Below are positions 1 through 15,709 of a DNA stretch of 22,143 nucleotides, in pieces (positions within the stretch are counted from its first letter, which is position 1; each line of letters begins with the position of its first letter). The notes beneath the pieces are model-generated. The model saw only the letters and a list, made by a program, of their open reading frames with translations, had not been told where the DNA came from and searched no databases. This DNA comes from a virus (taxonomy: Duplodnaviria > Heunggongvirae > Uroviricota > Caudoviricetes): the IMG/VR virus record IMGVR_UViG_2703718843_000010. One strand, written 5' to 3'. Both the position numbers and the translations under genes were made by a program.

Positions 1-981
1 TCACACCGCCAGCCCGCCGCCGAGAGGGTTTAACGTTACTGCGTGTTGCAGATAATCGGGGGCAAGGTGAGCATAAACCATCGTCTGTTGTATGCTGGCG
101 TGCCCCAGAATTTGCTGTAACGCAACAATGTTCCCTCCATTCATCATGAACCAGCTTGCGAAAGTATGCCGAAGCACGTGTGTGGCCTGCCCACGTGGTA
201 AATCGGGCTTAACCTGTTTGAGTCGTTCGCAGAAGTTTTCATAGTCAACTTTGAACAGTGGCCCGGTGTCGCTGGTCTTGATCTCTTTCTCCAGTTCTTC
301 CGATATCGGAACGGTGCGCTTTTTTCCGTTTTTGGTCTTAAGGAACGTCACGCGCCCGTGATTAACCTGCTCACCTCGCAGCGTGCTGCCTTCGCCCCAG
401 CGTGCGCCGGTGCTGAGGCATAGCAGTGCTACACGTCGATCGTCGCCGGTCAGAGTATCCAGCAATCTGCTGATCTCTGATTTTGCTAGATAGGTCATAG
501 CTGGCGGCGCTTCTTTCAGTGGTTCCAGACCCTTGCAGGGGTTTTCCTTCCTGAACTCTTCCAGTTTTATCAACGTGCTGAACATCCCGGATAAGCGGTA
601 AATATCCCGGTTGATCGTTGCTGCGCTGATACCGTCTTCCAGCCGTTGGCCTCGGTGCTGAGCAATCATTCGCTTGTTCAGTCGGTTAACGGCTGGATCG
701 CCCAGTGCCCTGATTGTTTTATTCAGGTGCCGCTTTTCAATCTCGCCATTTTCCTGAGTCTGTCCATACAGCAGCCACCAGGTATCTAACAACTCGCTTA
801 AGGTGCGGCGGTCAACGCTCGCGCCCAGCCATTCTTTTTTGTCGGCGTTGGCTAATACATAACGCTCAAAAAGAACCGCCTCTTGTTTTTTCTCAAATCG
901 CCTGCGGATACGTTTTCCGTTACGTCCGCGCGGCCATACGTCTACTTCATATTGACCACCTTCGAGCTTCTTAATCGACAT
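1..981 (-). CDS. int: Tyrosine site-specific integrase, P2 Int family (complete; its stop codon is the first triplet of the window)
   Basis: 326-aa ORF. N-terminus MSIKKLEGGQYEVDVWPRGRNGKRIRRRF and C-terminal catalytic region HVLRHTFASWFMMNGGNIVALQQILGHASIQQTMVYAHLAP closely match phage P2 integrase as I remember it. Sits at the prophage end next to the repressor gene. Confidence 0.95.
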   Translation of the reverse strand: MSIKKLEGGQYEVDVWPRGRNGKRIRRRFEKKQEAVLFERYVLANADKKEWLGASVDRRTLSELLDTWWLLYGQTQENGEIEKRHLNKTIRALGDPAVNRLNKRMIAQHRGQRLEDGISAATINRDIYRLSGMFSTLIKLEEFRKENPCKGLEPLKEAPPAMTYLAKSEISRLLDTLTGDDRRVALLCLSTGARWGEGSTLRGEQVNHGRVTFLKTKNGKKRTVPISEELEKEIKTSDTGPLFKVDYENFCERLKQVKPDLPRGQATHVLRHTFASWFMMNGGNIVALQQILGHASIQQTMVYAHLAPDYLQHAVTLNPLGGGLAV

Positions 982-1050
982 AAGAAAGCCCTCCGGCGTT
1001 TATTTCCCCATCTTGGTAACAGATAGTGAAAATGTAATGTTTATAGATGG

Positions 1051-1371
1051 TTAACCAGTTTGTGTCTCTGAGCGGTCTGATCCAGTTGACTCTGGCCCAA
1101 TGTGTGCGAGGGCCGGTGCGATTTGACCAGCTTGAGGGGCGGTCTTATCAGTCATTAGCCAGAGCGTATATTTTGCAAAACGGGGGTGTTGTGTGATCTT
1201 CAACAAAATTTCACTACCAACGCCTTCTCTTCTCCCCATCTCGTAATGCTTTTGAGTACCTGCCGGAATACCTGTCAATTCAAAGAATTGAGTTCTGGAT
1301 AGCCCTTCAGCATCCCTAATTGCTCGAATTTTTTCCCCAATCCCGCTTGACTGGGTCTCATTTGATACCAT
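1051..1371 (-). CDS. C: Immunity repressor, P2 C-like
   Basis: 106 aa from ATG at 1369-1371 with SD GGAGAAGGA upstream on the minus strand. C-terminal part FAKYTLWLMTDKTAPQAGQIAPALAHIGPE resembles remembered P2 C (FTKYTLWFMT...GQIAPALAHFG). The track ORF extends upstream only via a TTG at 1428, which I do not accept as the start. Confidence 0.85.
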   Translation of the reverse strand: MVSNETQSSGIGEKIRAIRDAEGLSRTQFFELTGIPAGTQKHYEMGRREGVGSEILLKITQHPRFAKYTLWLMTDKTAPQAGQIAPALAHIGPESTGSDRSETQTG

Positions 1372-1405
1372 ATCCTTCTCCTTAGTGGGTCTCAATTGAT
1401 ACCAT
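1353..1405. repeat. Imperfect 19-bp direct repeat GGGTCTCA(T/A)TTGATACCAT at 1353-1371 and 1387-1405, flanking the repressor RBS
   Basis: Read directly: 18 of 19 positions identical, 34 bp apart. Copy 1 contains the repressor start codon and first six codons; copy 2 lies just upstream. Confidence 0.8.
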
Positions 1406-1587
1406 TGCAACGAAAAGGCAACCGCCAATATAAGCAGTTACAAGCCGAAATAAGCGCCTAGCGCTAATGCGGAGATTAGCACAAATGAGTGGAAGACTTG
1501 AGCAGGGCAACAGAAGTGACGGAATCCATGTTGCTGAATTCCGCCGTAGTTATTTCCCAAATGGACGTTATGCGGGGACGGTTAAAA

Positions 1588-1824
1588 CTAGTGGCTCCGC
1601 TTCGGGGACAGTGAGGCGGCAAGTTCAGCTTTAGCAATGTATTGCTGAAGGAAGGTTACGGTGTCTTTTGCTTGCTCAACGGTTAAACCAGTAAACAGCT
1701 CACCAGCTTCTGGCAGTTTTGTCGGTGTAGCTAAGTGGTAGTGGAAGCGTAAGCAAGCCAGATCATTAGCAACGAGGTACTCAAGTTCAGCAGGAATGTA
1801 GATAGGTACTTCTTTCTGAGACAT
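1588..1824 (-). CDS. Hypothetical protein (78 aa) between repressor C and cox, same strand as C
   Basis: ATG at 1822-1824 preceded on the minus strand by AGGAG at 8-nt spacing; protein MSQKEVPIYIPAELEYLVANDLACLRFHYHLATPTKLPEAGELF... has no motif I recognise. P2 itself has no gene at this position. Confidence 0.5.
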   Translation of the reverse strand: MSQKEVPIYIPAELEYLVANDLACLRFHYHLATPTKLPEAGELFTGLTVEQAKDTVTFLQQYIAKAELAASLSPKRSH

Positions 1825-1862
1825 AAAAATCTCCTTTCTGGTTGTGTGGAAACACCAGAATA

Positions 1863-1879
1863 CCACGCGCCGGGCGTGG
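1863..1879. promoter_or_regulatory. GC-rich palindrome CCACGC-GCCGG-GCGTGG in the divergent region between the 78-aa ORF and cox; candidate operator
   Basis: Perfect 6-bp inverted arms read directly, about 40 bp upstream of both flanking start codons. Confidence 0.3.
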
Positions 1880-1919
1880 CTAAAAATCCCGGCCTATCTT
1901 CAATGAGAGGTGAAACACT

Positions 1920-2201
1920 ATGACAGACAAAGAGTTAGAGGGGTTCATTGAAGTGCGTCACGCTGTTGACGCGGTTCCATACCCAAAATTTGCCGAATTG
2001 ATCGGTAAGAAGCCCGCCACAGTTAAGAGCATGATTGAAGACGGTAAGTTGCCGATCATCCCGTGGAAGAACCCGGAAAGCCTGGGCGCCCGCGCTGAGA
2101 ACTGGATCTATATTCCTGAGTTCAACCGCGCAATGCGAGACGCCTACTACAACCGTCCGAAAGAACAGCGCGATGCTTGGTTGCTGTGGATCGGTCTTTG
2201 A
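1920..2201 (+). CDS. cox: Cox-like excisionase / early-operon regulator
   Basis: 93 aa; PYPKFAELIGKKPATVKSMIEDGKLPII...NWIYIPEFN...RPKEQRDAWLLWIGL resembles remembered P2 Cox (IPYQEFAKLIGKSTGAVRRMIDKGKLPVI...RPKEIRDGWLMWLGL). First rightward gene, facing the repressor side. Confidence 0.85.
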   Translation: MTDKELEGFIEVRHAVDAVPYPKFAELIGKKPATVKSMIEDGKLPIIPWKNPESLGARAENWIYIPEFNRAMRDAYYNRPKEQRDAWLLWIGL

Positions 2202-2211
2202 GGTTAACGCG

Positions 2212-2415
2212 ATGAGCCAGAAAACAGCCAACCACGAAAACCGGGTGCGTGAATGCAACGACATTCTGGACACCCATTTAAAAGATATGCAAACGGGCTT
2301 CATGATTCGCACCAATCGAGGCGAGTTTATGATCAGGGATAAAAAGCTGATTAAGAAAATCACCAAAGACGTGGCCCGCCATGTTGATGGTGAATTACTT
2401 AAATTGGGAATGTGA
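2212..2415 (+). CDS. Hypothetical small protein (67 aa)
   Basis: ATG at 2212 with GAGG at 8-nt spacing, directly after the cox stop. The longer track ORF from 2035 overlaps cox in another frame and is rejected. Confidence 0.5.
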   Translation: MSQKTANHENRVRECNDILDTHLKDMQTGFMIRTNRGEFMIRDKKLIKKITKDVARHVDGELLKLGM

Positions 2416-2425
2416 GGGGGCTTTT

Positions 2426-2632
2426 GTGGCTGTGCAATTAATACAGTTAAGTCGTCACTCGTATTTATATCGTGGCTTCACTATTCAGAAATGCCCGCGT
2501 AATCCTTTTACGTTTAAACACTCTTATCGTATTTCCAGTAATGGCGATTATTACGGGCGTGATTTTGCTTTAGCGGAAGCCATGCACACGGTTGATCAGA
2601 TGTATAAGCAAGGGGGCAGTAATGCACGATGA
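2426..2632 (+). CDS. Hypothetical small protein (68 aa, GTG start)
   Basis: GTG at 2426 preceded by GAGGGGG at 2414-2420. No recognisable motif; start is uncertain. Confidence 0.3.
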   Translation: MAVQLIQLSRHSYLYRGFTIQKCPRNPFTFKHSYRISSNGDYYGRDFALAEAMHTVDQMYKQGGSNAR

Positions 2633-2852
2633 AGGCCCATCACTGGCAAGCCTGCTTAAGCATGGGTGCCAGGTCACACACTTCAAGAACTCACGCGGCT
2701 GGCTGGAAACGCCGGACGGAAGATTTTTTAAGCCCGAACCGGCGAAGGTTCAATTTATCAAAGGTAAAAATAAACCTTTTATTTATACCCAAAGAATAAA
2801 TAAAGGCTTCCTGCTTACTCTGGCTGAGTTATTTAAAAAGCTAATTAAGTAA
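2622..2852 (+). CDS. Hypothetical small protein (76 aa)
   Basis: ATG at 2622 preceded by AGGGGG; the 3' part lies in a visibly AT-rich stretch. Confidence 0.5.
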   Translation: MHDEGPSLASLLKHGCQVTHFKNSRGWLETPDGRFFKPEPAKVQFIKGKNKPFIYTQRINKGFLLTLAELFKKLIK

Positions 2853-2938
2853 TTCGGTTTTAAAAAATCAACTCTGTTTTCTCCGCCCCTTTATTAAGTG
2901 GCGGCGGTTCAACTCATTCTTTTTTGGAGGAAGAGATT

Positions 2939-3151
2939 ATGACCAGACGTGAACAATATAGTTTCATTTTGCATGTTCTTTTACCTGCTATCGAAAATGA
3001 AGGGTTAACCATTAAAACCCGCCGTGATGGTGAGTTAACCCTTTCTGCCAGTGGGTCTGTAGCAACCAATTTTATAAGCAATCTGCGCCAGCACTGCATT
3101 GAAGAATTGCAGCGCCCTTCTATTCCAGCTTCCCATTACGGAGTCCTATAA
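2939..3151 (+). CDS. Hypothetical small protein (70 aa) immediately upstream of dam
   Basis: ATG at 2939 with GGAGG at 8-nt spacing; its stop (3149-3151) is one base before the dam ATG. Confidence 0.5.
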   Translation: MTRREQYSFILHVLLPAIENEGLTIKTRRDGELTLSASGSVATNFISNLRQHCIEELQRPSIPASHYGVL

Positions 3152-3152
3152 A

Positions 3153-4124
3153 ATGATCCGCCCGTTCATCAAATGGGCAGGGGGTAAAACCCGTGTCCTC
3201 CCTGACCTGCTGCCGCATCTTCCTAAAGTCGACTGCCTGATCGAACCATTCGTAGGCGGTGCATCGGTATTTCTGGCGACTGAATACCGCCGCTATGTGC
3301 TGGCTGATATCAACCCAGATCTTATTAACCTGTATCGGGAAGTCACCCGTTACCCGGACTTAGTGATCGATGCGGCCCGCGAACTGTTCAACAGTAAGAA
3401 CAACCCGCAGGGATACAACGAAGTCCGCGCCGCGTTCAATAAGCAGGTGGGTACGGTAAAAAGCGGTGGGTTGCGTTATGGCGCTGAAATGGCGTGCATT
3501 ATGCGCGCTGCTCAATTCCTGTATCTGAATCGCCACGGTTATAACGGCTTATGCCGATACAGCCGGAAGACCGGCTTTAACGTGCCGTTTGGCAAGTATA
3601 AGAGCGTCTACTTTCCTGAAAATGAAATCCGCCTGTTTGCCGAAAAGGCCAACGATACAAAGGCAATATTTCTTTGCGCGCCGTTCCAGCGTTCTCTACA
3701 AGTCGTCACGGGTGGCGATGTTCTTGTTTACTGCGATCCGCCTTACCTGCCTGAAAGCAAAACAGCCGATTTTACCCAATACCACACCGAACCATTCACG
3801 GAAGACAACCACCGCCAGTTAGTCCAGGCACTGCTGGAAGTTAACCGTAAGCATGGCGTGAAGGTCGTCATTTCCAACAGCGACACCGAAGCCACCCGCG
3901 TGATTTATCAGCCCTTCAAGATGCACGAAATCAGCGTGCAACGTTCCGTCAGCACTGACAAAGACAACCGCCAGAAGGCCAAAGAAGTGATCGGCGTGCT
4001 GCCTGTCTGCGACTGCTGCGGGCGTTACGGCGGCGGTTGCCCTGATTGTGGCGCCGTGATGGGTGATGCGACTTACAACGCGATGGTTGCGGCGGGCACG
4101 TTTGACGATCTGGAGGCTTTTTAA
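3153..4124 (+). CDS. dam: DNA adenine methyltransferase, Dam family (D12 class, likely GATC), with a C-terminal cysteine-cluster extension
   Basis: N-terminal FIKWAGGK, SAM-binding EPFVGGASVFL and catalytic DPPY, with overall collinearity to E. coli Dam as remembered. Extra tail VCDCCGRYGGGCPDCG. ATG at 3153 with GGAG upstream. Confidence 0.9.
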   Translation: MIRPFIKWAGGKTRVLPDLLPHLPKVDCLIEPFVGGASVFLATEYRRYVLADINPDLINLYREVTRYPDLVIDAARELFNSKNNPQGYNEVRAAFNKQVGTVKSGGLRYGAEMACIMRAAQFLYLNRHGYNGLCRYSRKTGFNVPFGKYKSVYFPENEIRLFAEKANDTKAIFLCAPFQRSLQVVTGGDVLVYCDPPYLPESKTADFTQYHTEPFTEDNHRQLVQALLEVNRKHGVKVVISNSDTEATRVIYQPFKMHEISVQRSVSTDKDNRQKAKEVIGVLPVCDCCGRYGGGCPDCGAVMGDATYNAMVAAGTFDDLEAF

Positions 4125-4444
4125 TGGCAAAAATCTATATCGCTGGCCCGATGAGCGGTTTGCCTGGATTCAATCGGCAGGCTTTTAACCGTGCAGCCGG
4201 GCACGTAGTGCGACGCGGAAACGTTGCCCTTAATCCGGCGATTTTGCCGGATGGATTAGAGCAGGCGGAATACATGGATATTTGCTTCGCCATGTTGCGT
4301 TGTGCTGACGGGATCTTCTTGCTGGATGGCTGGCAGCAGTCTGCCGGAGCTAAGGCAGAGCACGCGCTTGCTGAAAAGCTGGGTTTAGAAATTCAGTACC
4401 AAGTAATCGATCGGTGTAGCCGAAAGGCGGAGGGGCAGCAGTGA
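4124..4444 (+). CDS. DUF4406-like protein (nucleoside 2-deoxyribosyltransferase-like fold)
   Basis: 106 aa beginning MAKIYIAGPMSG...NPAILP, the hallmark N-terminus of the DUF4406 family. ATG overlaps the dam stop (TAATG). Confidence 0.75.
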   Translation: MAKIYIAGPMSGLPGFNRQAFNRAAGHVVRRGNVALNPAILPDGLEQAEYMDICFAMLRCADGIFLLDGWQQSAGAKAEHALAEKLGLEIQYQVIDRCSRKAEGQQ

Positions 4445-5355
4445 CCGCCTACTACAACGAAATCGACCCCTTCGCCGCGCAATACCTGCGCAACCTCATT
4501 GATGCCGGGCTTATCGCTTCCGGTGTTGTCGATACTCGTTCCGTTGAGGATGTAACCCCAAATGACCTTAAAGGATTCTCACAAGTCCACCTGTTTGCAG
4601 GTTTTGGAGGCTGGCCCCGTGCTTTGCGCGTCGCAGGATGGCCGGACGACCGCCCAGTATGGACAGCAAGTTGCCCATGCCAACCTTTCAGCCAGGCAGG
4701 CGAAGGAAAACAATTTGATGATGAGCGGCACCTATGGCCCGCCGTTCATTGGCTTGCAGGCCAGCAACGCCCTGTCGTTATATTTGGCGAACAGTCTTCA
4801 AGCAAAGATGCAGAAGTCTGGATCGACCTTGTACAAACTGACATGGAAAGTTTGGGCTATGCCTTCGGGGCGTCGGCGTTTCCGTCTGCGGGCGTCGGTG
4901 CGCCGCACATCCGGGAGCGTACTTACTGGCTGGCCGACTCCAACCGCGAGCAATACGAAGAACGCTTATCAGGATGCCGAGAAGGTGATCGCCAGGAAGC
5001 TGGCTGGTCGGCAGTCGAACTTACAGGGCTTTGCTTGTCTTGCGGGTTGGCCCACCCCTGCGGCGAGGGATGGAAAGGGCGGGTATCAGGGAGGAAGGAT
5101 GCGGCACGGGAAGCTGTCAACGGATACGCTGGATGTGACAGCGCAGATAGCAGGCCCGGCCCGGTTAACGGATTCTGGGGATCTGCTGACTGGCTCCTTT
5201 GCAGAGATGGAAAGTGGAGGCCAGTTAAACCCGGCCTTAAGCCTCTGGTTGATGGGGTTCCCTCCAGAGTGGGAAAACTACGCGCCAGCGGAAACGCCGT
5301 AAATATCTATGCAGCCGCAACTTTCTTAAAAGCCTACATGGAGATCGCGCAATGA
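4441..5355 (+). CDS. DNA cytosine-5 methyltransferase (phage-type); a second long overlapping frame is described in findings
   Basis: GTG start overlapping the upstream stop (GTGA). Motif I FAGFGG, motif IV PCQPFSQAG, GEQ-type motif VI region, motif VIII GAPHIRERTYWLA, motif X GNAVN...FLKAY. Stop overlaps the gene A ATG. Confidence 0.8.
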   Translation: MTAYYNEIDPFAAQYLRNLIDAGLIASGVVDTRSVEDVTPNDLKGFSQVHLFAGFGGWPRALRVAGWPDDRPVWTASCPCQPFSQAGEGKQFDDERHLWPAVHWLAGQQRPVVIFGEQSSSKDAEVWIDLVQTDMESLGYAFGASAFPSAGVGAPHIRERTYWLADSNREQYEERLSGCREGDRQEAGWSAVELTGLCLSCGLAHPCGEGWKGRVSGRKDAAREAVNGYAGCDSADSRPGPVNGFWGSADWLLCRDGKWRPVKPGLKPLVDGVPSRVGKLRASGNAVNIYAAATFLKAYMEIAQ

Positions 5356-7757
5356 CCACGGCAACCCGTGGCCGTCGCGCCCCTTCTCCACCTCCACCGT
5401 ATCCGGGTAGCACTGACAATGCTATCCCTTACGCTTATGGCGGGAACAAACCATACCAGCCTATTGGCGTTGATGTAGCGCCGGGGCTGGATGGTTTCGA
5501 CTATCTCACGCCGGACGGCACGCGTAAGCATATTGCGTTCAGTGAACTGGTAGCGGAAGACGAAAAGCCGGAGCGCAGCAAGCTGCTGCGTCGCCGCCTG
5601 GCTTCTCTTCCGCAGTATATCCGCCGCCACTTTGCCGCGAAGCTGGATGCACTGGACGCGAAAGACCGCAAAGCGGCAGATCACTGGCTGGTTAATACAT
5701 TTGAGCGCCACGTATTAACGCGTATTGATAGCGTGAACAGTGTTTACCAGCCTGACACTGTGATGCCCGGCATTCTGCTGCCAATCCGCGATCAGCTTTT
5801 CCGTATGCTCTGGGCAGGGAAGAAAGAGTTAAAAAGACTGGCTTATACGCTTGCCGATATCTTTACGAGCGAGTTTATACGCGAGTCCGATCACCAGTTG
5901 GCACGCACCGGAGATCCTGAGTTCGCGGCGCTTTCTGGCTATGGCCGTATTGCGTCGCTGGCGGTGCATCTGAAAACGCCGATCCCTGGCTGGACGGCGT
6001 ATTGCAATGAAGAACTGGAAGCGGAGGACGCGTTACGCGCGGTTCTTCGCCTTGAGTCACCGCAGTGGTGGTTAAACCGCCTGCGCCGTATCCATGCCCG
6101 GTGGCGTGAGCATTTGATGATCGCAGCGGGATACGTCCAGAAAAAATCTTCCCCATACAGTAGCGCCCCGTGCCTTACGGAGTGGTTGGCCCAGAAAAAG
6201 GCTAACCGTGAATACCTTAAGGCTATGGAACTGGAAGACCAGGACACGGGCGAACGCATTTCACTGATCGATAAAGTCGCCGGTAGTGTTGCCAATCCGG
6301 CCAACCGTCGCCGCGAACTCATGACGAGAATGCGCGGATTTGAAGATCTGGCGAAGCTGGAAGGGCTGGCCGGTGACTTCTACACGCTAACAGCACCTTC
6401 CCGTTACCACTCCATGCAGCATAACGGGCGCCGCAATAATAAATACTGTGGCGCGTCGCCGCGCGAGACGCAGCAATATCTTTGCAAAGTCTGGGCGAGA
6501 ACCCGCGCAGCGTGGAAGAGAAAAGGGATCCGCGTCTTTGGTTTCCGCGTGGTCGAACCGCACCACGATGCAACGCCACACTGGCATTTACTTCTTTTTA
6601 TGCGCCCGGAATGCGTCGAGCAGGCGCGCGAAATCTTCCGTAAATATGCCCTGAAAGAAGACGGCAACGAACCGGGAGCGCAGGAAAACCGCTTTCAGGT
6701 TGTGCCGATCGACGATGCCCACGGCAGCGCAACCGGCTACATAGCGAAATACATTTCGAAGAATATCGACGGCTTCGCGCTGGATGGTGAGAAGGACGAC
6801 GAAACCGGGGAAGACCTGAAAGAAATGTCACTCCGCGTTAGCGCGTGGGCATCGCGCTGGGCTATTCGTCAGTTTCAGCAGATCGGCGGTGCGCCGGTCA
6901 CGGTATATCGCGAACTTCGCCGCCTGGGCGATCGCGAACTGGTGTTACACCCTGAACTGGAAACCGCCCGGCAGGCCGCTAACGGTGGCGAATGGGATAA
7001 CTACGTATTAGCCCAGGGTGGACCGTTGGTTGAGCGCGATAAGCTGCGCATCCGTCTGAATTATGAAACCACTGAAAACGGCAACGCCTACGGCGATAAC
7101 GTCCAGCGAATCACTGGTATTTACTGCCCGATTACGGGCAATGACTCTTTGATCTTCACCCGCACCACTCAATACAAAATCGTGCCGAAGCGCCAGAGCG
7201 CTGACGGTGTGGCCGTTGACGTTGGTTTTTCAGGCGGCAACGCCGCCCCTCGGAGTTCTGTCAATAACTGTACGCGGGATCCCGCGGCAGGTGCTGACGG
7301 TGTAGAACATGCCGCCAGCGAAGCTACAGGGCAGTCAGAAATGACTGAGCCAGCTGAGGGCGTGACGGTGAATTTTGATGCGCTTTCACGGCAGGAAAAG
7401 CGAGAATTGGCGCAGCGGCTCAGTGCCGATGTGCGAAGTAAGCGTAAAAAACGGCCACCGGATAGGGAAGACAGGGCCGGGCTGTCCGTGAAAGAGCAGC
7501 AGATCAGTGAACTGCTGGCGCTGCGTGGGATTGATGCCAGCGCCGGAATGGTCAGATCGATGATGGCCGGTGCGTCAGTGGCGTGCGGCGATCTTGTTAT
7601 GACCGTGCAGGACGGGCGGCTGGTGTCGCGCAATCGCGCCGCGTCGGGGATAGGTAAATTAGCAACTGAAAAAATGGCAGTTAAGAAAAAATCTGATGAA
7701 CTTCTCAATCGCTGGAAAGTGGCTGTAAAAATTAACAGGGGTAAGTTGACAAATTGA
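5352..7757 (+). CDS. A: Replication initiation protein A (rolling-circle HUH endonuclease), P2 gpA-like
   Basis: 801 aa with HUH-type motif EPHHDATPHWHLLLF and active-site tyrosine motif GYIAKYISKNIDG; collinear with remembered P2 A. Confidence 0.95.
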   Translation: MTTATRGRRAPSPPPPYPGSTDNAIPYAYGGNKPYQPIGVDVAPGLDGFDYLTPDGTRKHIAFSELVAEDEKPERSKLLRRRLASLPQYIRRHFAAKLDALDAKDRKAADHWLVNTFERHVLTRIDSVNSVYQPDTVMPGILLPIRDQLFRMLWAGKKELKRLAYTLADIFTSEFIRESDHQLARTGDPEFAALSGYGRIASLAVHLKTPIPGWTAYCNEELEAEDALRAVLRLESPQWWLNRLRRIHARWREHLMIAAGYVQKKSSPYSSAPCLTEWLAQKKANREYLKAMELEDQDTGERISLIDKVAGSVANPANRRRELMTRMRGFEDLAKLEGLAGDFYTLTAPSRYHSMQHNGRRNNKYCGASPRETQQYLCKVWARTRAAWKRKGIRVFGFRVVEPHHDATPHWHLLLFMRPECVEQAREIFRKYALKEDGNEPGAQENRFQVVPIDDAHGSATGYIAKYISKNIDGFALDGEKDDETGEDLKEMSLRVSAWASRWAIRQFQQIGGAPVTVYRELRRLGDRELVLHPELETARQAANGGEWDNYVLAQGGPLVERDKLRIRLNYETTENGNAYGDNVQRITGIYCPITGNDSLIFTRTTQYKIVPKRQSADGVAVDVGFSGGNAAPRSSVNNCTRDPAAGADGVEHAASEATGQSEMTEPAEGVTVNFDALSRQEKRELAQRLSADVRSKRKKRPPDREDRAGLSVKEQQISELLALRGIDASAGMVRSMMAGASVACGDLVMTVQDGRLVSRNRAASGIGKLATEKMAVKKKSDELLNRWKVAVKINRGKLTN
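7233..7287. other. Candidate replication origin (nick-site region) inside gene A
   Basis: Hairpin GGCGG-CAACG-CCGCC, then CCTCGGAGTTCTGTCAATAACTG, then perfect palindrome CGCGGGATCCCGCG. Encodes the AAPRSSVNNC linker that I remember as the ori-containing part of P2 A. Confidence 0.35.
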
Positions 7758-7774
7758 AAAATCTGCACCATCAT
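7746..7774 (+). promoter_or_regulatory. Candidate promoter for the cargo cassette (TTGACA, 17-nt spacer, CATCAT)
   Basis: Perfect -35 hexamer at 7746-7751 and a weak -10 at 7769-7774; a second TTGACA...TGCAC module follows 34 bp downstream. Confidence 0.3.
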
Positions 7775-7820
7775 TCTGGTTGACAAAGTTTGATATTTGC
7801 ACTCATGGAGATTTGGATTG

Positions 7821-8414
7821 ATGTCTAAGCAGCCTTTACCTTGGGACTTTCACCCACAATTAACTGAAGAGCGTTTAACAATTATTGCTAAAGAATTGTT
7901 AAGGGTCTTAAATGACACATATGCTCAACTTTCGACCACCTTGGATAACAACTATACACGTTCTACTTGTACTTTTGGTCGTCAATGGCAGTTACTTATT
8001 GATTTATGTTTGAGTGGACAGTACGACTGGCTTCATCTCACCAACGCTGGTTTAGACATCACTTTTACGATCGATACAATTCCTGTTCGTTTCTTCACTG
8101 ATGATCCGGCCAATCCTAAAAAGGATGGTTTTTATCGTCGAAATCCTGCTGATCAGCTTTTTGCTCCTGAGGTGGACATTCCCGTTTTACATCGCTTTGT
8201 TGTTGAGAAACCCGAATTTGAGGGTGAAGGCGCTAAAGTTCATTTCATTGGTTATAACGCTTTGGACGAAGAAGTATCTAAGTGGACGTACAACGATGAA
8301 CCAACAACAGCATTGTTGCACTCTACGGATGATACACCGCCAGAGTCTGTTAGAATTGAACTTGATGACATTCGCCCTTCTCGTCCCGAAAAGGAAGAAA
8401 AAGAGAGCGATTGA
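7821..8414 (+). CDS. Hypothetical protein (197 aa), first gene of the hotspot cassette; candidate effector or toxin
   Basis: ATG at 7821 with GGAG upstream. No motif I recognise; acidic, low-complexity C-terminal tail (PSRPEKEEKESD). AT-richer than the flanking phage genes. Confidence 0.6.
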   Translation: MSKQPLPWDFHPQLTEERLTIIAKELLRVLNDTYAQLSTTLDNNYTRSTCTFGRQWQLLIDLCLSGQYDWLHLTNAGLDITFTIDTIPVRFFTDDPANPKKDGFYRRNPADQLFAPEVDIPVLHRFVVEKPEFEGEGAKVHFIGYNALDEEVSKWTYNDEPTTALLHSTDDTPPESVRIELDDIRPSRPEKEEKESD

Positions 8415-8437
8415 GATTAATGAGTAGAAGGTGAAAA

Positions 8438-9550
8438 GTGTTTAACGGTTCTAATTTAAGATTGGCTCGTCTGTATCACGAGCTATCACTGGAGCAAGTA
8501 GCTGAGCGGGTCGATAAGACCCGCCAGTATATTCAGCGGCTGGAATCCGGCACGGCTGTTCCAACACCCGAGCTTGCGAATAAATTAGCTGCCGTCTTGC
8601 TGGTGATGCCTCATTTTTTTGAAGAGCAATGGCAGTCTCCTGTAAATGAAGAGATCGTTCACTTCCGCAAGCGTAGTTCTACGAGAGTCGCCACAAAAAT
8701 GGCGACTCTCGCCAAAGCTGAGCTGTATCGACGACTTATTGAAATTTTTGAAGAGTATCTGGAGTTACCGCAAGTAAGATTTCCTGAACTGAAGGTGGAT
8801 ACTCAAGAGGATATCGAAAAAGCAGCGGAGAAGTGCCGGACTGATTGGGGGCTAGGTTTTGGGCCGATCGATAACATGACTCGTCTTGCTGAAAAGCTGG
8901 GAGCGTTTGTCACTTCTTTTGATTCTGTTTCTGACGATGTTGATGCTCTTTCTGTTCCTTTGAGCCGCCCATTTATCGTAAGGAATACAGCTAAAAAGTC
9001 ACCCTGCCGTCAGCGGTTTGATATCGCTCACGAGGTTGCACATTTAATTTTACATGAGGGTGTCTCTACTGGAGACAGGGCTACTGAGTCGCAGGCTAAC
9101 CGCTTCGCGTCTGCATTGCTTTTGCCAAGAACAGCTATGGCGAAATATTTTCCACGTCCGATTGGTGGTCGAATCGACTGGCAAGGTCTTAGCCAGTTTA
9201 AATTAACGTGGAAAGTGAGTAAGGCCGCGATCATTTATAGAGCACATCAACTTGGGCTTTTAACTGACGCTCAATACAAAACCGCCTTTTTTGGTCTCAA
9301 GCGAAAGGGGGAGGCTATTGATGAGAAAGAAGATTATTTGATCCCTTGTGAGAAGCCAGAACTATTCAGTAAAGCAATGAAATGCCTGTTAAATGATTTG
9401 TCCGTGGATATTGAAACATTAGCCCAGCGTTTGAGCATAACCCCTACGATGCTCGCAGAACTTGCTAATGATGACACTTTGGTTTCTGCGTCATGTGTGA
9501 ACTCTGAGAATGTAATTTCAATGTTTGCGTATCGGATGAAAACTGCTTAA
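8438..9550 (+). CDS. XRE-family HTH fused to ImmA/IrrE-type (M78, COG2856) zinc metallopeptidase, with an extra C-terminal region
   Basis: GTG start with AAGGTG at 5-nt spacing. N-terminal HTH LRLARLYHELSLEQVAERVDKTRQYIQRLESG; HExxH motif HEVAH encoded at 9029-9043 within the ImmA-like core; about 150 further residues after the core. Confidence 0.85.
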   Translation: MFNGSNLRLARLYHELSLEQVAERVDKTRQYIQRLESGTAVPTPELANKLAAVLLVMPHFFEEQWQSPVNEEIVHFRKRSSTRVATKMATLAKAELYRRLIEIFEEYLELPQVRFPELKVDTQEDIEKAAEKCRTDWGLGFGPIDNMTRLAEKLGAFVTSFDSVSDDVDALSVPLSRPFIVRNTAKKSPCRQRFDIAHEVAHLILHEGVSTGDRATESQANRFASALLLPRTAMAKYFPRPIGGRIDWQGLSQFKLTWKVSKAAIIYRAHQLGLLTDAQYKTAFFGLKRKGEAIDEKEDYLIPCEKPELFSKAMKCLLNDLSVDIETLAQRLSITPTMLAELANDDTLVSASCVNSENVISMFAYRMKTA

Positions 9551-9564
9551 AAATCGCTGTGATG

Positions 9565-9593
9565 AAAAATCCCGCTTCGGCGGGATTTTTTTT
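9565..9593. terminator. Rho-independent terminator, potentially bidirectional
   Basis: Stem AATCCCGC / GCGGGATT with TTCG loop followed by eight T; a five-A run precedes the stem. Confidence 0.8.
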
Positions 9594-9996
9594 AGAAGAT
9601 GTCTGCACAATAGTGCACAAATTTGCACAATTTTTTTGATGCTGTTTATGCCCTTTCCGCCCTGTGGCGGCGCGGTCTGCCCCCGGATCGGCAAGTGCAC
9701 AAAAAACGAAGCAAATGTCGCGCGCAGGTGACGGGGGAACAGCCCACGCGACAGGGGTCAGGGAGGGGGTGCCATTAAATGCCATTCTTCGGCCTTTTCC
9801 GCCTTCTTAGCGCGCTTTCTCGCTTCTGGATATGTGCGGGGTCGATTGCAGTTTGCACCTGCCAGAATGGTGCTCATTCGCTCTGAGTGAGGGGGGTAAA
9901 TGCTGCGCTGAGTGGTGTTCAGGTGGTGGCCGGTCATGCGGGGATTGAAAATTACTGAAGGAGAGCCGCCGCAGGATGTGCGGCGGGTGGGTCGGG
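9594..9996. other. cos / packaging region (inferred from synteny; exact cohesive-end position not determined)
   Basis: About 400-bp non-coding interval between the cargo terminator and the 3' end of portal gene Q, where P2 has cos. Contains G-rich tracts and the TGCACAA repeats. Confidence 0.4.
9604..9630. repeat. Three TGCACAA direct repeats at exact 10-bp spacing (9604, 9614, 9624); fourth copy at 9696-9702
   Basis: Read directly from the sequence. Confidence 0.8.
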
Positions 9997-11055
9997 TCAC
10001 TCGTCTTTGAGCAGAGCGTACGGATTAAAGCGGATCACTTCCTGGCCGAGCCAGTCATTGACGCCCTTCATGGCTTCCATCACAGGCAACATTTCGTTGA
10101 TAGCGAAGACACGCGCGGCCTTCTCAACATCACCGAGCGAGCCGTTGCCTTCCGGCATTGCGCCCATTAGCTGTGGCGGGATGCGGTGAGCGTCGCGCAG
10201 ATCGTTGCGCGTGGCTGCTTTGATGTTAAGAAACTCATCCTTTGCCGATATCTGGCTGAACGGCAACAGTTGCACGCCGTCTTTGCCGCCGCCCGGCGCG
10301 TGGATCAGCACGTTTTTGAAGGAGCCTTTCCCTCTGGCCTGTGACAGCGTCTTTTGCACCACCTTGATGCTTTCCTGATCCACCTTCTCCGAACCGACAT
10401 AGAGAATACATCCGGCGTGAGAGCCGTTGTCATAGTAGAGTTTGCGGAACCTGTCGGCAGAATGGGACAGGCTGGCGGACAACAGCGCCCCCATGTACTC
10501 CGGCATACCGTAGATTTCCTGATGAATGTCAGGGTTCATGATGTGGCAGACCTCGCCCGCCCTGAACTCGTATTCATCTTTCCACTGCCGGATAAACCAG
10601 TAGGTATCAAGATCGCTTCCCCGTCGCGTGTTCAGCGCCGGAACATGCTTAAGTTTTAGCGGCTCTCCCAGGCGATTAGACCGACGCTCAAGATAGGCAT
10701 TGCCGAAGACAAACCAGTCCAGCGCAAACGCAGAGAACGCCTGCCGCGAGAGTAACGGATGAGGGATATAGCACCCGGTCAGCACATTGCGTTTGAAGTA
10801 AAGCGCCGACTGATGCAGCGGGGACTGTGCGAACGCACGGGTTAACCCCTTCCAGTCTATTGGCGTTTCGTAGTACCGGCCGTTATCGACACAGCACATG
10901 CTGTCCAGCAGATCATAGCCGTCCGTTACCGAATATGGTCCGTCAAACGTGAAGGCGCTAAGCGCCGGATCGCTTCTGAGCGCGTCAGAGATATCAGGCT
11001 GACCGGCACTGCCGCTGCTGGCAGTGTGTTTGTTTTTGTATGTGCGCTTCTTCAT
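9997..11055 (-). CDS. Q: Portal protein, P2 gpQ-like
   Basis: 352-aa ORF adjacent to and co-oriented with the large terminase; start ATG overlaps the P stop (ATGA). Confidence 0.9.
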   Translation of the reverse strand: MKKRTYKNKHTASSGSAGQPDISDALRSDPALSAFTFDGPYSVTDGYDLLDSMCCVDNGRYYETPIDWKGLTRAFAQSPLHQSALYFKRNVLTGCYIPHPLLSRQAFSAFALDWFVFGNAYLERRSNRLGEPLKLKHVPALNTRRGSDLDTYWFIRQWKDEYEFRAGEVCHIMNPDIHQEIYGMPEYMGALLSASLSHSADRFRKLYYDNGSHAGCILYVGSEKVDQESIKVVQKTLSQARGKGSFKNVLIHAPGGGKDGVQLLPFSQISAKDEFLNIKAATRNDLRDAHRIPPQLMGAMPEGNGSLGDVEKAARVFAINEMLPVMEAMKGVNDWLGQEVIRFNPYALLKDE

Positions 11056-12785
11056 CAGAACTCCATAGCAAACCCGCCGCTGCCACTCTCCTGGCCCAGC
11101 GGTTCGTTAATAATGGCGAGCATATTCGCCCAGGCTAAATCCCCGTGGCTGACGCCGCGCGAGCGGTCAGTGTCATAGGTGATGAATCCGCCCGGCGTCT
11201 TTACCTTGCGAACAGAGTTAAAGGCGTTGATCAGGGCGCGCTCGCTGCGGTCATATTCCCATCGCCCGGCGCGGATCAGCTGTAGCATTTTCAGCACCAG
11301 GGCGCGCTTTGACGTCATTGACATGGTGTAGGGCATCGCCATCGGGAAAAACTTCTTCACTATCTGGTAAACGGCTTCACCATTACCGCCCGTCACGTCG
11401 ATGCCGACATGCTGAACGTTGTATTTGAAGGTGAAGTTTTCGATAACTTTCGCCTGCTCTTCAAATTCAAGGCCGCGCACCTGTTCCGTTTCCACCGTGC
11501 GGAATTTACCGCCTGGCACCAGTGGCGGAACCACGACGCAAATCGCGCCGCTGTCGCCGTTGCCGCTGCTGCCGTTGGCGTCATAACCTATCCACACCGG
11601 GCGGTTACCCATCGGCCTGGACGCAAAAGGTTTCCAGTCCGGCCATTCGTCGTAACCATCTGCCCCGCAGCCAATCAGGGCGTTAAGGTTGAAGGCTGAC
11701 TCGCCATCGCGCACGAACTCGCACATGTACAGGTTGCGGAATTCATCCTCACTGTTTTCATCCTGAATTTCTTCAAGGTCGGTATATTCCCAGCCGTGGT
11801 CTATCACGTCCTTCAGAGTGACAATCTGACGCCAGGTTTTATCCGGGCATAGCAGGCCGCTGTTCAGCGTTTTCCAGCCCACATCAAACGCTTTGCGCTG
11901 TGCCTTCGGGCGTTTCTCATTCCAGCGATCGCCTGTCCAGAAAGGGTAAGCCTCATGGGTTTCACCTGACGGCGTGGAAAAGTAGGTACGCGTCAGCCCT
12001 TTCAGCGTTGCCATTGCACCTGCAACCTTTCGCAGGTTGGTGAAGTTGCTGACCCAGAAGAATTCATCGAACTTCAGGTTGCCCGTATATGACTGTGCCG
12101 TCGCTGCGGACGTGCCGAGGAAATGAAGCTCTGCGCCGTTACTCAGTACGATTTTGTCGCCCCCCTTAAGCTCAACATCCACTTCTTCGGCCATCCTCTG
12201 AATGAATCCCCTGAACTGGTGCGCCTGACGGCGGGATGCTGACAGAAATATCTGGTTGCGTTGGTACGGGTATTTCACATCATCGCGCAGCGCATCCAAC
12301 AACGCCTCGCGTGCAAAGTACCAGGTTGCGCCAATCTGGCGGGACTTCAGTATCATGCGGTTTCGGTGGTGGCGTTGCTCATACCAGCCGCGTTGATGCC
12401 ACGAAAGCGAATCAAGTATTTTCTCCCGCAGCGCGACGATCTGTTCTTCGGTGAAGTGGTTTTTCAGCTTGCGCTTGCGTGGCTTTTTGCCCGCCCCAGC
12501 CCCTGCCGGTTGTCCGTCAGACAGTTTTTTCAGTTGCCGGGTCAGCAGATCAATCTCCTTAAAGTCTCCCCCGGTCTTGTCTTTCTTGTCCGTAAGCTGG
12601 ATGAGGCGGGCATCCATAGACTGGCTGACGCGCTGTACGGGCGGCGTTTCATCCCATTCATCGCGTTTCTTCCAGGCATAAATTGTGTTCTGATTAATCC
12701 CCATCAGGCGCGCGATCTCCGCTGGCGGGTAGCCCTGCCAGTAAAGTTGTTTTGCCCTCTGACGTACAAAAGCGTCCTGTATCAT
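11055..12785 (-). CDS. P: Terminase large (ATPase) subunit, P2 gpP-like
   Basis: 576 aa with Walker-A-like SRQIGATW and an N-terminal HTH-like segment; divergent from O as in P2. Confidence 0.9.
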   Translation of the reverse strand: MIQDAFVRQRAKQLYWQGYPPAEIARLMGINQNTIYAWKKRDEWDETPPVQRVSQSMDARLIQLTDKKDKTGGDFKEIDLLTRQLKKLSDGQPAGAGAGKKPRKRKLKNHFTEEQIVALREKILDSLSWHQRGWYEQRHHRNRMILKSRQIGATWYFAREALLDALRDDVKYPYQRNQIFLSASRRQAHQFRGFIQRMAEEVDVELKGGDKIVLSNGAELHFLGTSAATAQSYTGNLKFDEFFWVSNFTNLRKVAGAMATLKGLTRTYFSTPSGETHEAYPFWTGDRWNEKRPKAQRKAFDVGWKTLNSGLLCPDKTWRQIVTLKDVIDHGWEYTDLEEIQDENSEDEFRNLYMCEFVRDGESAFNLNALIGCGADGYDEWPDWKPFASRPMGNRPVWIGYDANGSSGNGDSGAICVVVPPLVPGGKFRTVETEQVRGLEFEEQAKVIENFTFKYNVQHVGIDVTGGNGEAVYQIVKKFFPMAMPYTMSMTSKRALVLKMLQLIRAGRWEYDRSERALINAFNSVRKVKTPGGFITYDTDRSRGVSHGDLAWANMLAIINEPLGQESGSGGFAMEF

Positions 12786-14854: not shown

Positions 14855-14899
14855 CAGAAGCGGTGGGGCATTGCCCCGCCATGACGGGGAGAAGTGACG

Positions 14900-15709
14900 A
14901 TGTTAACACCGGCACAACGACATTTTCAGAAGGTCATGGCAGAACGCCGGGGCCAGGCGGATGAAGAATCCGATATCCAGCGTACCGCGCATGAGCAAAT
15001 TCTGCATCGCCTGCGTATGGACTTGTCCCGCCTCAGCGGCGTGCAGTCCGAAGAAACCAAAGCCGAAATGAAGAAATCCATGCTGCCTGAATACGAGGGA
15101 TGGATTGAAGGCACGCTCGACGGCGACAGCGGGCGGCAGGATGAAGTCATTACCAGGCTGATGGTCTGGGCGATTGACTGTCGTGACTATGCGCTTGCGT
15201 TGAGGCTGGGGCGCTACGTGGTACGCCACGGGCTGACACTGCCGGATAACTTCAACCGCACGGCAGCGACCTTCCTGACTGAAGAAATGAGCAAGCCACT
15301 GTTGACGCTCGCGGCTGCTGATGCCGACGCTGATTTGTCGTCCGGTATCGCAGTGCTTGACGAAGTCGCGGGAATTGTCGCCGACAGTGATATGCCGGAT
15401 GTGGTGCGCGCCAAGTTGTGCAAAGCCCGCGCGCTTGCCCGCCGTGGCGCGACTGATATCACGACCAAAGCTGAGGCGCTGGCGCTGTTCCGTGAGGCGC
15501 TGACGCGAAACCCTAATGCCGGGGTAAAAAAAGAGATCGCAACGCTTGCCCGTGAAGTTAAGAAGCTGTCTGCGGATAGCGGCACGGGTGAAGGTGACTC
15601 GGCCAGCACCGACAAAACTGACGGTACTGCTGATCCCGCCCCTGAAAAAAGCGCCAGCGCGGCAGGCAAAGCTACAAAGCGCAAGCCTGCCAGCCAGAAA
15701 AAGAATTAA
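14900..15709 (+). CDS. M: Terminase small subunit, P2 gpM-like
   Basis: MLTPAQRHFQKV...DMPDVVRAKLCKA...AGVKKEIATLAREVKKL resembles P2 M. ATG at 14900 with GGGGAGAAG upstream; an in-frame GTG at 14894 is also possible. Confidence 0.9.
   Translation: MLTPAQRHFQKVMAERRGQADEESDIQRTAHEQILHRLRMDLSRLSGVQSEETKAEMKKSMLPEYEGWIEGTLDGDSGRQDEVITRLMVWAIDCRDYALALRLGRYVVRHGLTLPDNFNRTAATFLTEEMSKPLLTLAAADADADLSSGIAVLDEVAGIVADSDMPDVVRAKLCKARALARRGATDITTKAEALALFREALTRNPNAGVKKEIATLAREVKKLSADSGTGEGDSASTDKTDGTADPAPEKSASAAGKATKRKPASQKKN

Follow-up and report, generated by a model that had tools for sequence, protein, structure and literature searches.

We analyzed a 22,143-nucleotide stretch of viral DNA, referred to here as the window, which is a P2-like (Peduoviridae) prophage. 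Its genes and features run in the order A, cargo, terminator, repeats, Q, gpP, scaffold O, capsid N, gpM, and head completion L. The gene for the nicking/replication protein A (5352-7757) is followed by a RosmerTA defence pair as cargo, RmrT (7797-8414; E = 9e-92) and RmrA (8438-9550; E = 3e-204). The latter is the protein that the preliminary description had called HTH-ImmA. Further to the right lie the portal gene Q (9997-11055, minus strand; phrog_68, E = 2e-144), the large terminase gene gpP (11055-12785, minus strand; Pfam PF06056, PF13384, Terminase_6N, and Terminase_6C), and the small terminase gene gpM (14894-15709, plus strand; PF05944 and phrog_74). The products of the two terminase genes are 46% (gpP) and 37% (gpM) identical to those of P2. 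Among deposited phages, Enterobacter phage phiT5282H is closest, with a gpM that is 90% identical. The interval between A and Q is a known cos-adjacent hotspot for defence genes in P2-like phages (PMC9122126). In the window, the cargo ends on the right at the Rho-independent terminator of rmrA (9564-9591, plus strand), a hairpin with a 12-bp stem and a predicted energy of -17.1 kcal/mol (z = -4.33 relative to shuffled sequences).

The word TGCACAA occurs on the plus strand at 9604-9610 (repeat a), 9614-9620 (repeat b), and 9624-9630 (repeat c), with starts exactly 10 bp apart, and again at 9696-9702 (repeat d). All four copies reported in the preliminary description were found, and its placement of the array right behind the cargo terminator is correct, given the strong hairpin at 9564-9591. 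Directly 3′ of repeat c is a run of seven T residues (9631-9637, plus strand). Repeat d overlaps a run of six A residues (9701-9706), so that repeat and tract together occupy 9696-9706 on the plus strand. The GC-rich stretch noted earlier between the copies was located at 9651-9686, within a block that we delimit at 9650-9690. The repeats thus lie between the A-side hotspot and the 3′ end of Q, near the terminase genes P and M, in the same order as in P2.

The only further TGCACAA in the 22-kb window is on the minus strand at 15416. The total of five copies is ordinary (4.49 expected); the arrangement is not. Tandem Repeats Finder reported a period of 10 with 2.8 copies. In 300 shuffles of the window that preserved dinucleotides, no 7-mer appeared in triplicate with a constant spacing of 9 to 12 bp, and in 200,000 random placements, four of the five TGCACAA copies never fell within 93 bp. 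A connection to the shorter word TGCAC in the modules upstream of the cargo, as proposed earlier, did not hold up: TGCAC is a different word and is not enriched in the window (46 found versus 62.9 expected), and its occurrences at 7764 and 7798 sit in promoter-like modules that lack the TGCACAA 7-mer. These modules, TTGACAA-N11-TGCACC and TTGACAA-N10-TTGCACT, lie just 5′ of rmrT (7746-7805). They are probably promoters of the cargo, unrelated to the cos repeats.

We searched IMG/VR with the pattern TGCACRA-N3-TGCACAA-N3-TGCACAA, which matched more than 119 contigs. A stricter pattern identified 26 DNA stretches in reference genomes sampled at one per species. These were mostly from Enterobacterales, including Kluyvera, Erwinia, Pantoea, Mixta, Enterobacter, Citrobacter, Trabulsiella, Izhakiella, Salmonella, and Escherichia, among others. 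About five chance or unrelated-repeat matches (L021, L024, L029, L060, and L077) were set aside; all other classifiable loci were P2-like phages or satellite-like elements. In the phage loci, Q lies approximately 400 to 470 bp to the right of the array. The alignment of 99 unique cos regions revealed an abrupt boundary: each position before 9604 carried 0.1 to 0.4 bits of information, compared with 2.0 bits once repeat a begins at 9604, and the left flanks fell into 32 unrelated families. Several conserved features lie outside the search pattern, including repeat d, found at +92 from repeat a in 98 of the 99 relatives, the T tract behind repeat c (1.8 to 2.0 bits), and the block GCGCGCAGGTGACGGGGGAACAGCCC. 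Judged from this alignment, the array marks the exact left edge of the conserved cos unit and, at the same point, the edge of the defence-gene hotspot.

This distribution bears on the suggestion that the array is an operator through which RmrA or a phage regulator controls either the cargo genes or the operon of Q and P. Short direct repeats in phase are a common feature of operators, and an HTH protein is encoded directly upstream. However, RmrA is cargo, and the array is present whatever the cargo: it accompanies 32 unrelated left flanks, only 5 of the 99 unique cos regions share the flank of the window, and satellite-like elements without these genes carry the array as well. Moreover, no promoter-like site was seen in 9300-10200, and the cargo gene is closed by a strong terminator before the array begins. 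We consider regulation by way of these repeats, which the preliminary description had offered as an alternative, highly improbable.

To control for circularity, a second set of loci was gathered by portal homology and not by the repeats. In the portal-selected loci of the TGCACAA lineage, the 10-bp register was kept without insertions or deletions, while the 3-nt spacers varied freely (TAG, ACC, CAG, AAA, and ATC). The 7-mers themselves differed by single substitutions alone (CGCACAA, TGCGCAA, TGCAAGA, and TGCACGA). Phage phiT5282H (Novemvirus) is 87% identical to the window over 9589-10000 and has the same four repeats, with TGCACGA as copy a. The P88-like phages (Xuanwuvirus) have the array, repeat d, and the predicted cosN described below in common with the window and differ from it in the GC-rich block. 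In the two records inspected, those of phiT5282H and P88_4B11, the repeats are not annotated.

A comparison with P2 and 186 had been proposed with the original observation. We compared the window with the mapped cos sites of both phages and of the satellite P4. This analysis revealed the same geometry with a different word, TGCAT, in all three. The repeats start 123, 111, 101, and 29 bp before the mapped 19-nt end in P2, 124, 111, 101, and 29 bp before it in P4, and 123, 110, 100, and 29 bp before it in 186. The corresponding distances in the window, counted from the predicted end, are 123, 113, 103, and 31 bp. The likeness extends to the position in the genome, from the A-side hotspot to the portal gene Q, and to the order of elements: three distal repeats, a proximal repeat with an A tract, and a GC-rich 19-nt end (predicted in the window), at distances that agree within 2 bp. 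The differences are the word itself and the spacing between repeats a and b, which is 10 bp in the window and 12 to 13 bp in P2, P4, and 186. Strict phasing at one helical turn is therefore not universal. Terminase-recognition repeats at cos are a known kind of element, and the region studied here is an architectural homologue of the P2, 186, and P4 cos regions.

By this register, the cohesive end of the prophage is predicted to be the 19-nt sequence GGTGACGGGGGAACAGCCC (9727-9745, plus strand), which stands in the same relation to the four repeats and to Q as its counterpart in P2. It is identical to the P2 end, GGCGAGGCGGGGAAAGCAC, at 13 of 19 positions and differs at the remaining 6. Among the 99 unique relatives, 9727-9745 is one of the most conserved stretches of the region, mostly at 2.0 bits per position. 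The mapped cohesive end of phiRSA1 starts with GGTGA (PMC5694545), and GGTGACGGGGGAACAGCCC also opens with GGTGA. An inverted repeat (TGTCGCG at 9716-9722 and CGCGACA at 9747-9753) brackets the predicted end.

Two papers (PMC9594776 and PMC5694545) refer to a 55-bp core of the P2 and P4 cos sites and credit it to Ziermann and Calendar (1990). Our BLAST comparison of P2 with P4 gave a homology of 55 bp that begins exactly at the proximal TGCATTAAAA, and the distal array lies outside it. Repeat d with its A tract is the counterpart of the TGCATTAAAA that opens this core. The distal array is unannotated in the P2, P4, and 186 records.

A consensus scan flagged GTGCACAAATTTGCAC, followed by the T run behind repeat c, as terminator-like, which would make the array a site that ends transcription or insulates cos from read-through. 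The stem at this site is only 5 bp, though, and folds no better than shuffled sequences (z = 0.04 on the plus strand and -0.73 on the minus strand). Furthermore, the repeats of P2, P4, and 186 are not followed by a T run. We give this reading almost no credence.

The GC-rich block (9650-9690) contains a dyad, CCGCC (9657-9661) and GGCGG (9666-9670), and the motif GGCGCGGTCTG at 9669-9679. In P4, GGCGCGGTCTG lies 56 bp before the mapped cos, compared with 58 bp before the predicted end in the window, while 186 has just GGCGCGG at -56. The block is absent from P2 and from L230, a locus whose gpP is 91% identical to that of the window; the array, repeat d, and the predicted cosN are kept in both. 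Dyads recur between repeats c and d with varying arms (CCGCC/GGCGG, CCGCGCC/GGCGCGG, CAGGCC/GGCCTG, ACGCCGCG/CGCGGCGT, and TCCAGCC/GGCTGGA). The position of the dyad and a GGCGCGG-like motif at about -56 are shared by the window (9650-9690), P4 (L125, 955-985), and 186 (L209, 1555-1585). On these comparisons, the block appears to be an optional, sequence-variable element of cos.

We considered whether this block could itself be the cohesive end. Two observations had suggested it: a match to the reverse complement of the P2 cos at 10 of 19 positions, and the start of the GenBank record LR595891 (P88_4B11). We rejected this candidate, as the block is far less conserved than 9727-9745. In addition, P4 and 186 have a related block besides their mapped cos, and P2 and L230 have no block at all, which argues against its being the cohesive end. 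The start of LR595891 is a contrary datum. It lies at the GC-rich block (position 3046 of L001 and position 1 of L002), at a point equivalent to the 9649/9650 boundary of the window, between the T tract and the block. The sister record NC_049389 starts exactly at a P2-type cohesive end. If the start of LR595891 reflects measured termini, the predicted cosN would be wrong, and the repeats would still flank cos.

We then asked how the repeats behave where the surrounding DNA varies. For P2-type phages, we assembled 62 unique left flanks from loci with a portal at least 99% identical. Between -140 and -35, these flanks are unalignable, mostly at 0.0 to 0.5 bits, and reach 0.8 to 0.9 bits solely at the repeat offsets. 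Exact TGCAT was present at -103 to -99 in 76% of the flanks, at -114 to -108 in 69%, at -127 to -120 in 47%, and at -31 to -27 in 92%. With a background of 0.0016 per position, TGCAT is 50- to 100-fold above background at the repeat offsets, and a relaxed motif was found at sites b and c in 98 to 100% of the flanks. Similarly, in P4-like satellites picked by Psu (62 to 64% identical to that of P4), the array (0.86 to 0.98), repeat d (1.00), and cosN (0.90) all match P4 closely, whereas the DNA that separates the array from repeat d matches at just 0.24 to 0.6. Past cosN, these satellites remain conserved for approximately 7 to 10 bp, up to the start of the satellite hotspot. All cis elements consequently lie on one side of cosN. 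Together, these patterns point to selection on the distal array in P2 and P4 as well.

The same data speak to the idea that the array serves cargo exchange and not packaging, as a site or boundary of recombination. The variable cargo abuts repeat a exactly, and cos ends may promote exchange, as Rousset et al. speculate (PMC9122126). Yet P4-like satellites have their hotspot across cosN and carry the array at the same offsets. In P2-type phages, the variable DNA spans the array region, and the words persist at fixed offsets within it, which fits functional selection rather than a mere crossover point. We regard a role as recombination boundary alone as very unlikely. We also rejected a role as iterons of a replication origin. 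The same array stands beside unrelated replication modules (an A protein in phages and primases in satellites), the P2 origin is inside gene A, and the P4 ori and crr are at 4291-4590 and 9086-9809, not at cos.

The satellite-like elements that carry TGCACAA arrays form a family of approximately 10 to 12 kb (L291, positions 1-11700; L292 to L294; L124; L343; L344; L349; L353; L357; L360; and L364). L291 to L294 and L124 encode a primase (phrog_1139), two P4-like integrases, a MazF-like toxin, and a homologue of the P2-family capsid protein with an N-terminal extension of approximately 140 amino acids. Portal and terminase genes are absent from elements of this type, and they are not P4/Psu-type satellites. 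Essentially all that they have in common with TGCACAA-type phages is a cos unit of roughly 165 bp. Seven loci in reference genomes resemble them. By blastn, L291 shares with the window only 9601-9757 (74% identical) and a weak match in an integrase gene. Against five P88-type phages, four had just 6409-6577 of L291 in common with it, and the fifth added a match of 34 bp; the L291 cos segment is 80 to 82% identical to these phages. Because L291 shares only this cos segment, the portable unit runs from repeat a to approximately 12 bp past the predicted cohesive end. As P2 and P4 share their 55-bp core, the window and L291 share 9601-9757, the whole cos unit, which includes the equivalent of that core.

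In the Izhakiella australiensis genome D4N98, one contig carries a phage (L362) with a portal 99% identical to that of the window, and another carries a satellite-like element (L360) with the same cos type. The two are a candidate helper-satellite pair. In a 12.7-kb contig of a metagenome-assembled genome (QAKE01000006.1; L353, positions 1-30, and L357), two cos units are 12.2 kb apart, which is the length of a satellite unit. A search for contig ends at the predicted cohesive end returned this contig as its single, ambiguous case: its first 9 nt match the Nextera mosaic end and are followed by CTGTCCCCCCGTCACC, inside the predicted cosN. The Bacillota label of the contig is probably due to contamination.

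Loci with more distant portals (47 to 52% identity) have the same layout with other words. One set has three distal copies of TGCATGA and a proximal GGTGCATGAAAAC, another has distal TGCATAA or TGCATCA and a proximal GGTGCATAAAAAG, and a third has distal words of the YGCAAGA type and a proximal GGTGCATGAAAA. The proximal word equals the distal word in four of five lineages; the exception is lineage D, with distal YGCAAGA and proximal TGCATGA. In the TGCATGA and YGCAAGA lineages (L252, L258, L276, L284, and L251 to L263), repeat c is continued by GATC-N7-8-GGATC, so that two conserved Dam sites lie right behind the array, at approximately -95 to -80 from cosN. That lineages differ in their word suggests a role for it in determining the DNA, and with it the satellite, that a given terminase can package.

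The four TGCACAA copies likely serve this prophage as the recognition module of its cos site and are likely bound by its terminase. The cosB-like, terminase-type array of the preliminary description is well backed by comparative evidence, namely, the 32 unrelated flanks, the boundary shared with L291, and the P2, 186, and P4 geometry; its regulator alternative and its link to the upstream TGCAC are not upheld. The candidate readers of the repeats are gpM and the N-terminal HTH of gpP. Residues 6 to 63 of gpP (nucleotides 12597-12770, minus strand) match Terminase_5 and a homeodomain-like HTH (PF06056 and PF13384). This HTH is of a kind usual in small terminases (Terminase_5/HTH_23, with a weak match to TerS_not_xtmA). 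It is conserved across Peduoviridae lineages, and the residues of its helix are lineage specific: the helix GINQNT[IV]Y[AS]WKKRDEWD hardly varies within the TGCACAA lineage, even at 71% overall gpP identity, and the region differs in lineages with other words. The N terminus of gpM is also lineage specific, so that a comparison of gpM and gpP alignments has no power to tell the two apart. Pfam recognized no DNA-binding domain in gpM. We modeled gpM from its single sequence with AlphaFold, but the confidence of the model (pLDDT, 63) was too low for a fold search; the homologues found were all at least 90% identical and gave no useful alignment, and no solved structure in the PDB matched gpM or gpP.

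In lambda, cosB consists of R sites bound by gpNu1 and a site, I1, for IHF. The region studied here resembles cosB in having several short recognition words on one side of cosN within approximately 150 bp and, we propose, in anchoring the terminase for nicking and the start of packaging. It differs from cosB in its direct repeats of 7 bp and in the HTH that gpP itself carries, and neither the sequences nor the proteins are homologous. gpM matched PF05944 only and not the Nu1 family; the array would therefore work like cosB without being a member of the lambda-type family. The small terminases of SPP1, SF6, and PaP3 are ring-shaped or oligomeric proteins that engage phased, repeated, or bent DNA near the cut (PMC9611059), although these terminase families are unrelated to those of the window.

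A rival arrangement is one in which the terminase contacts only the core near cosN and the repeats are read by a host architectural protein or act through intrinsic curvature. The T and A tracts behind repeats c and d would fit such a role, as would the use of IHF at lambda cosB and the lack of a recognizable DNA-binding domain in gpM, for which we have Pfam and a low-confidence model. On the other hand, lineages that share one host range, E. coli and its relatives, use different words (TGCACAA and TGCAT), and the proximal word mostly follows the distal one; a shared host factor would not predict this. No conserved IHF consensus (WATCAANNNNTTR) was seen by eye in 9631-9695 or in its homologues. 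We judge this arrangement unlikely.

According to our model of terminase recognition, the repeats at 9604, 9614, and 9624 would lie on one face of the helix and, with the T tract, form a distal array. An oligomeric terminase, gpM together with gpP, may bind this array cooperatively. The approximately 65 bp that follow contain the optional GC-rich dyad. Bending of this DNA, over the T tract, the dyad, and the A tract, would let the terminase hold the proximal copy too. Repeat d, 31 bp before the cut site, would then position the gpP nuclease on the predicted cosN (9727-9745), where staggered nicks would generate 19-nt cohesive ends. Since the cis elements are all on one side of cosN, and by analogy with lambda cosB, the terminase should remain on the repeat-bearing end, which would be the first to be packaged.

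A broader proposal, which we put forward only tentatively and think may well prove wrong, is that YGCAnnA in three copies (at approximately -123, -112, and -102) with a matching copy at approximately -30 determines packaging specificity throughout the Peduoviridae, as an unrecognized module beyond the 55-bp core. The word of each lineage would then sort helpers and satellites into classes of packaging compatibility, with TGCAT for P2, 186, and P4-like satellites and TGCACAA for phages of the Novemvirus and Xuanwuvirus type and the satellite-like elements with a capsid homologue. The word would perhaps be read by the gpP HTH and not by the small subunit. In the literature that we covered, which did not extend to Ziermann and Calendar (1990), we found no description of the distal array outside the 55-bp core, its family-wide conservation, the lineage-specific word, or its sharing with a second family of satellite-like elements.

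The repeats are real and, judged from sequence comparison, a functional but unsurprising element, as terminase-binding repeats at cos are expected biology. For DNA delivery, use is made of P2/P4 cosmids and transducing particles, whose transduction efficiency is reported to depend, in ways left unexplained, on flanking regions (PMC9594776). A unit of approximately 157 bp with a distal three-site array offers concrete elements to keep, mutate, or swap. As the exact edge of the hotspot, the array helps to delimit cargo in the annotation of prophages. Finally, the lineage-specific word suggests a simple code that matches a terminase to the DNA it packages and, hence, satellites to their helpers.
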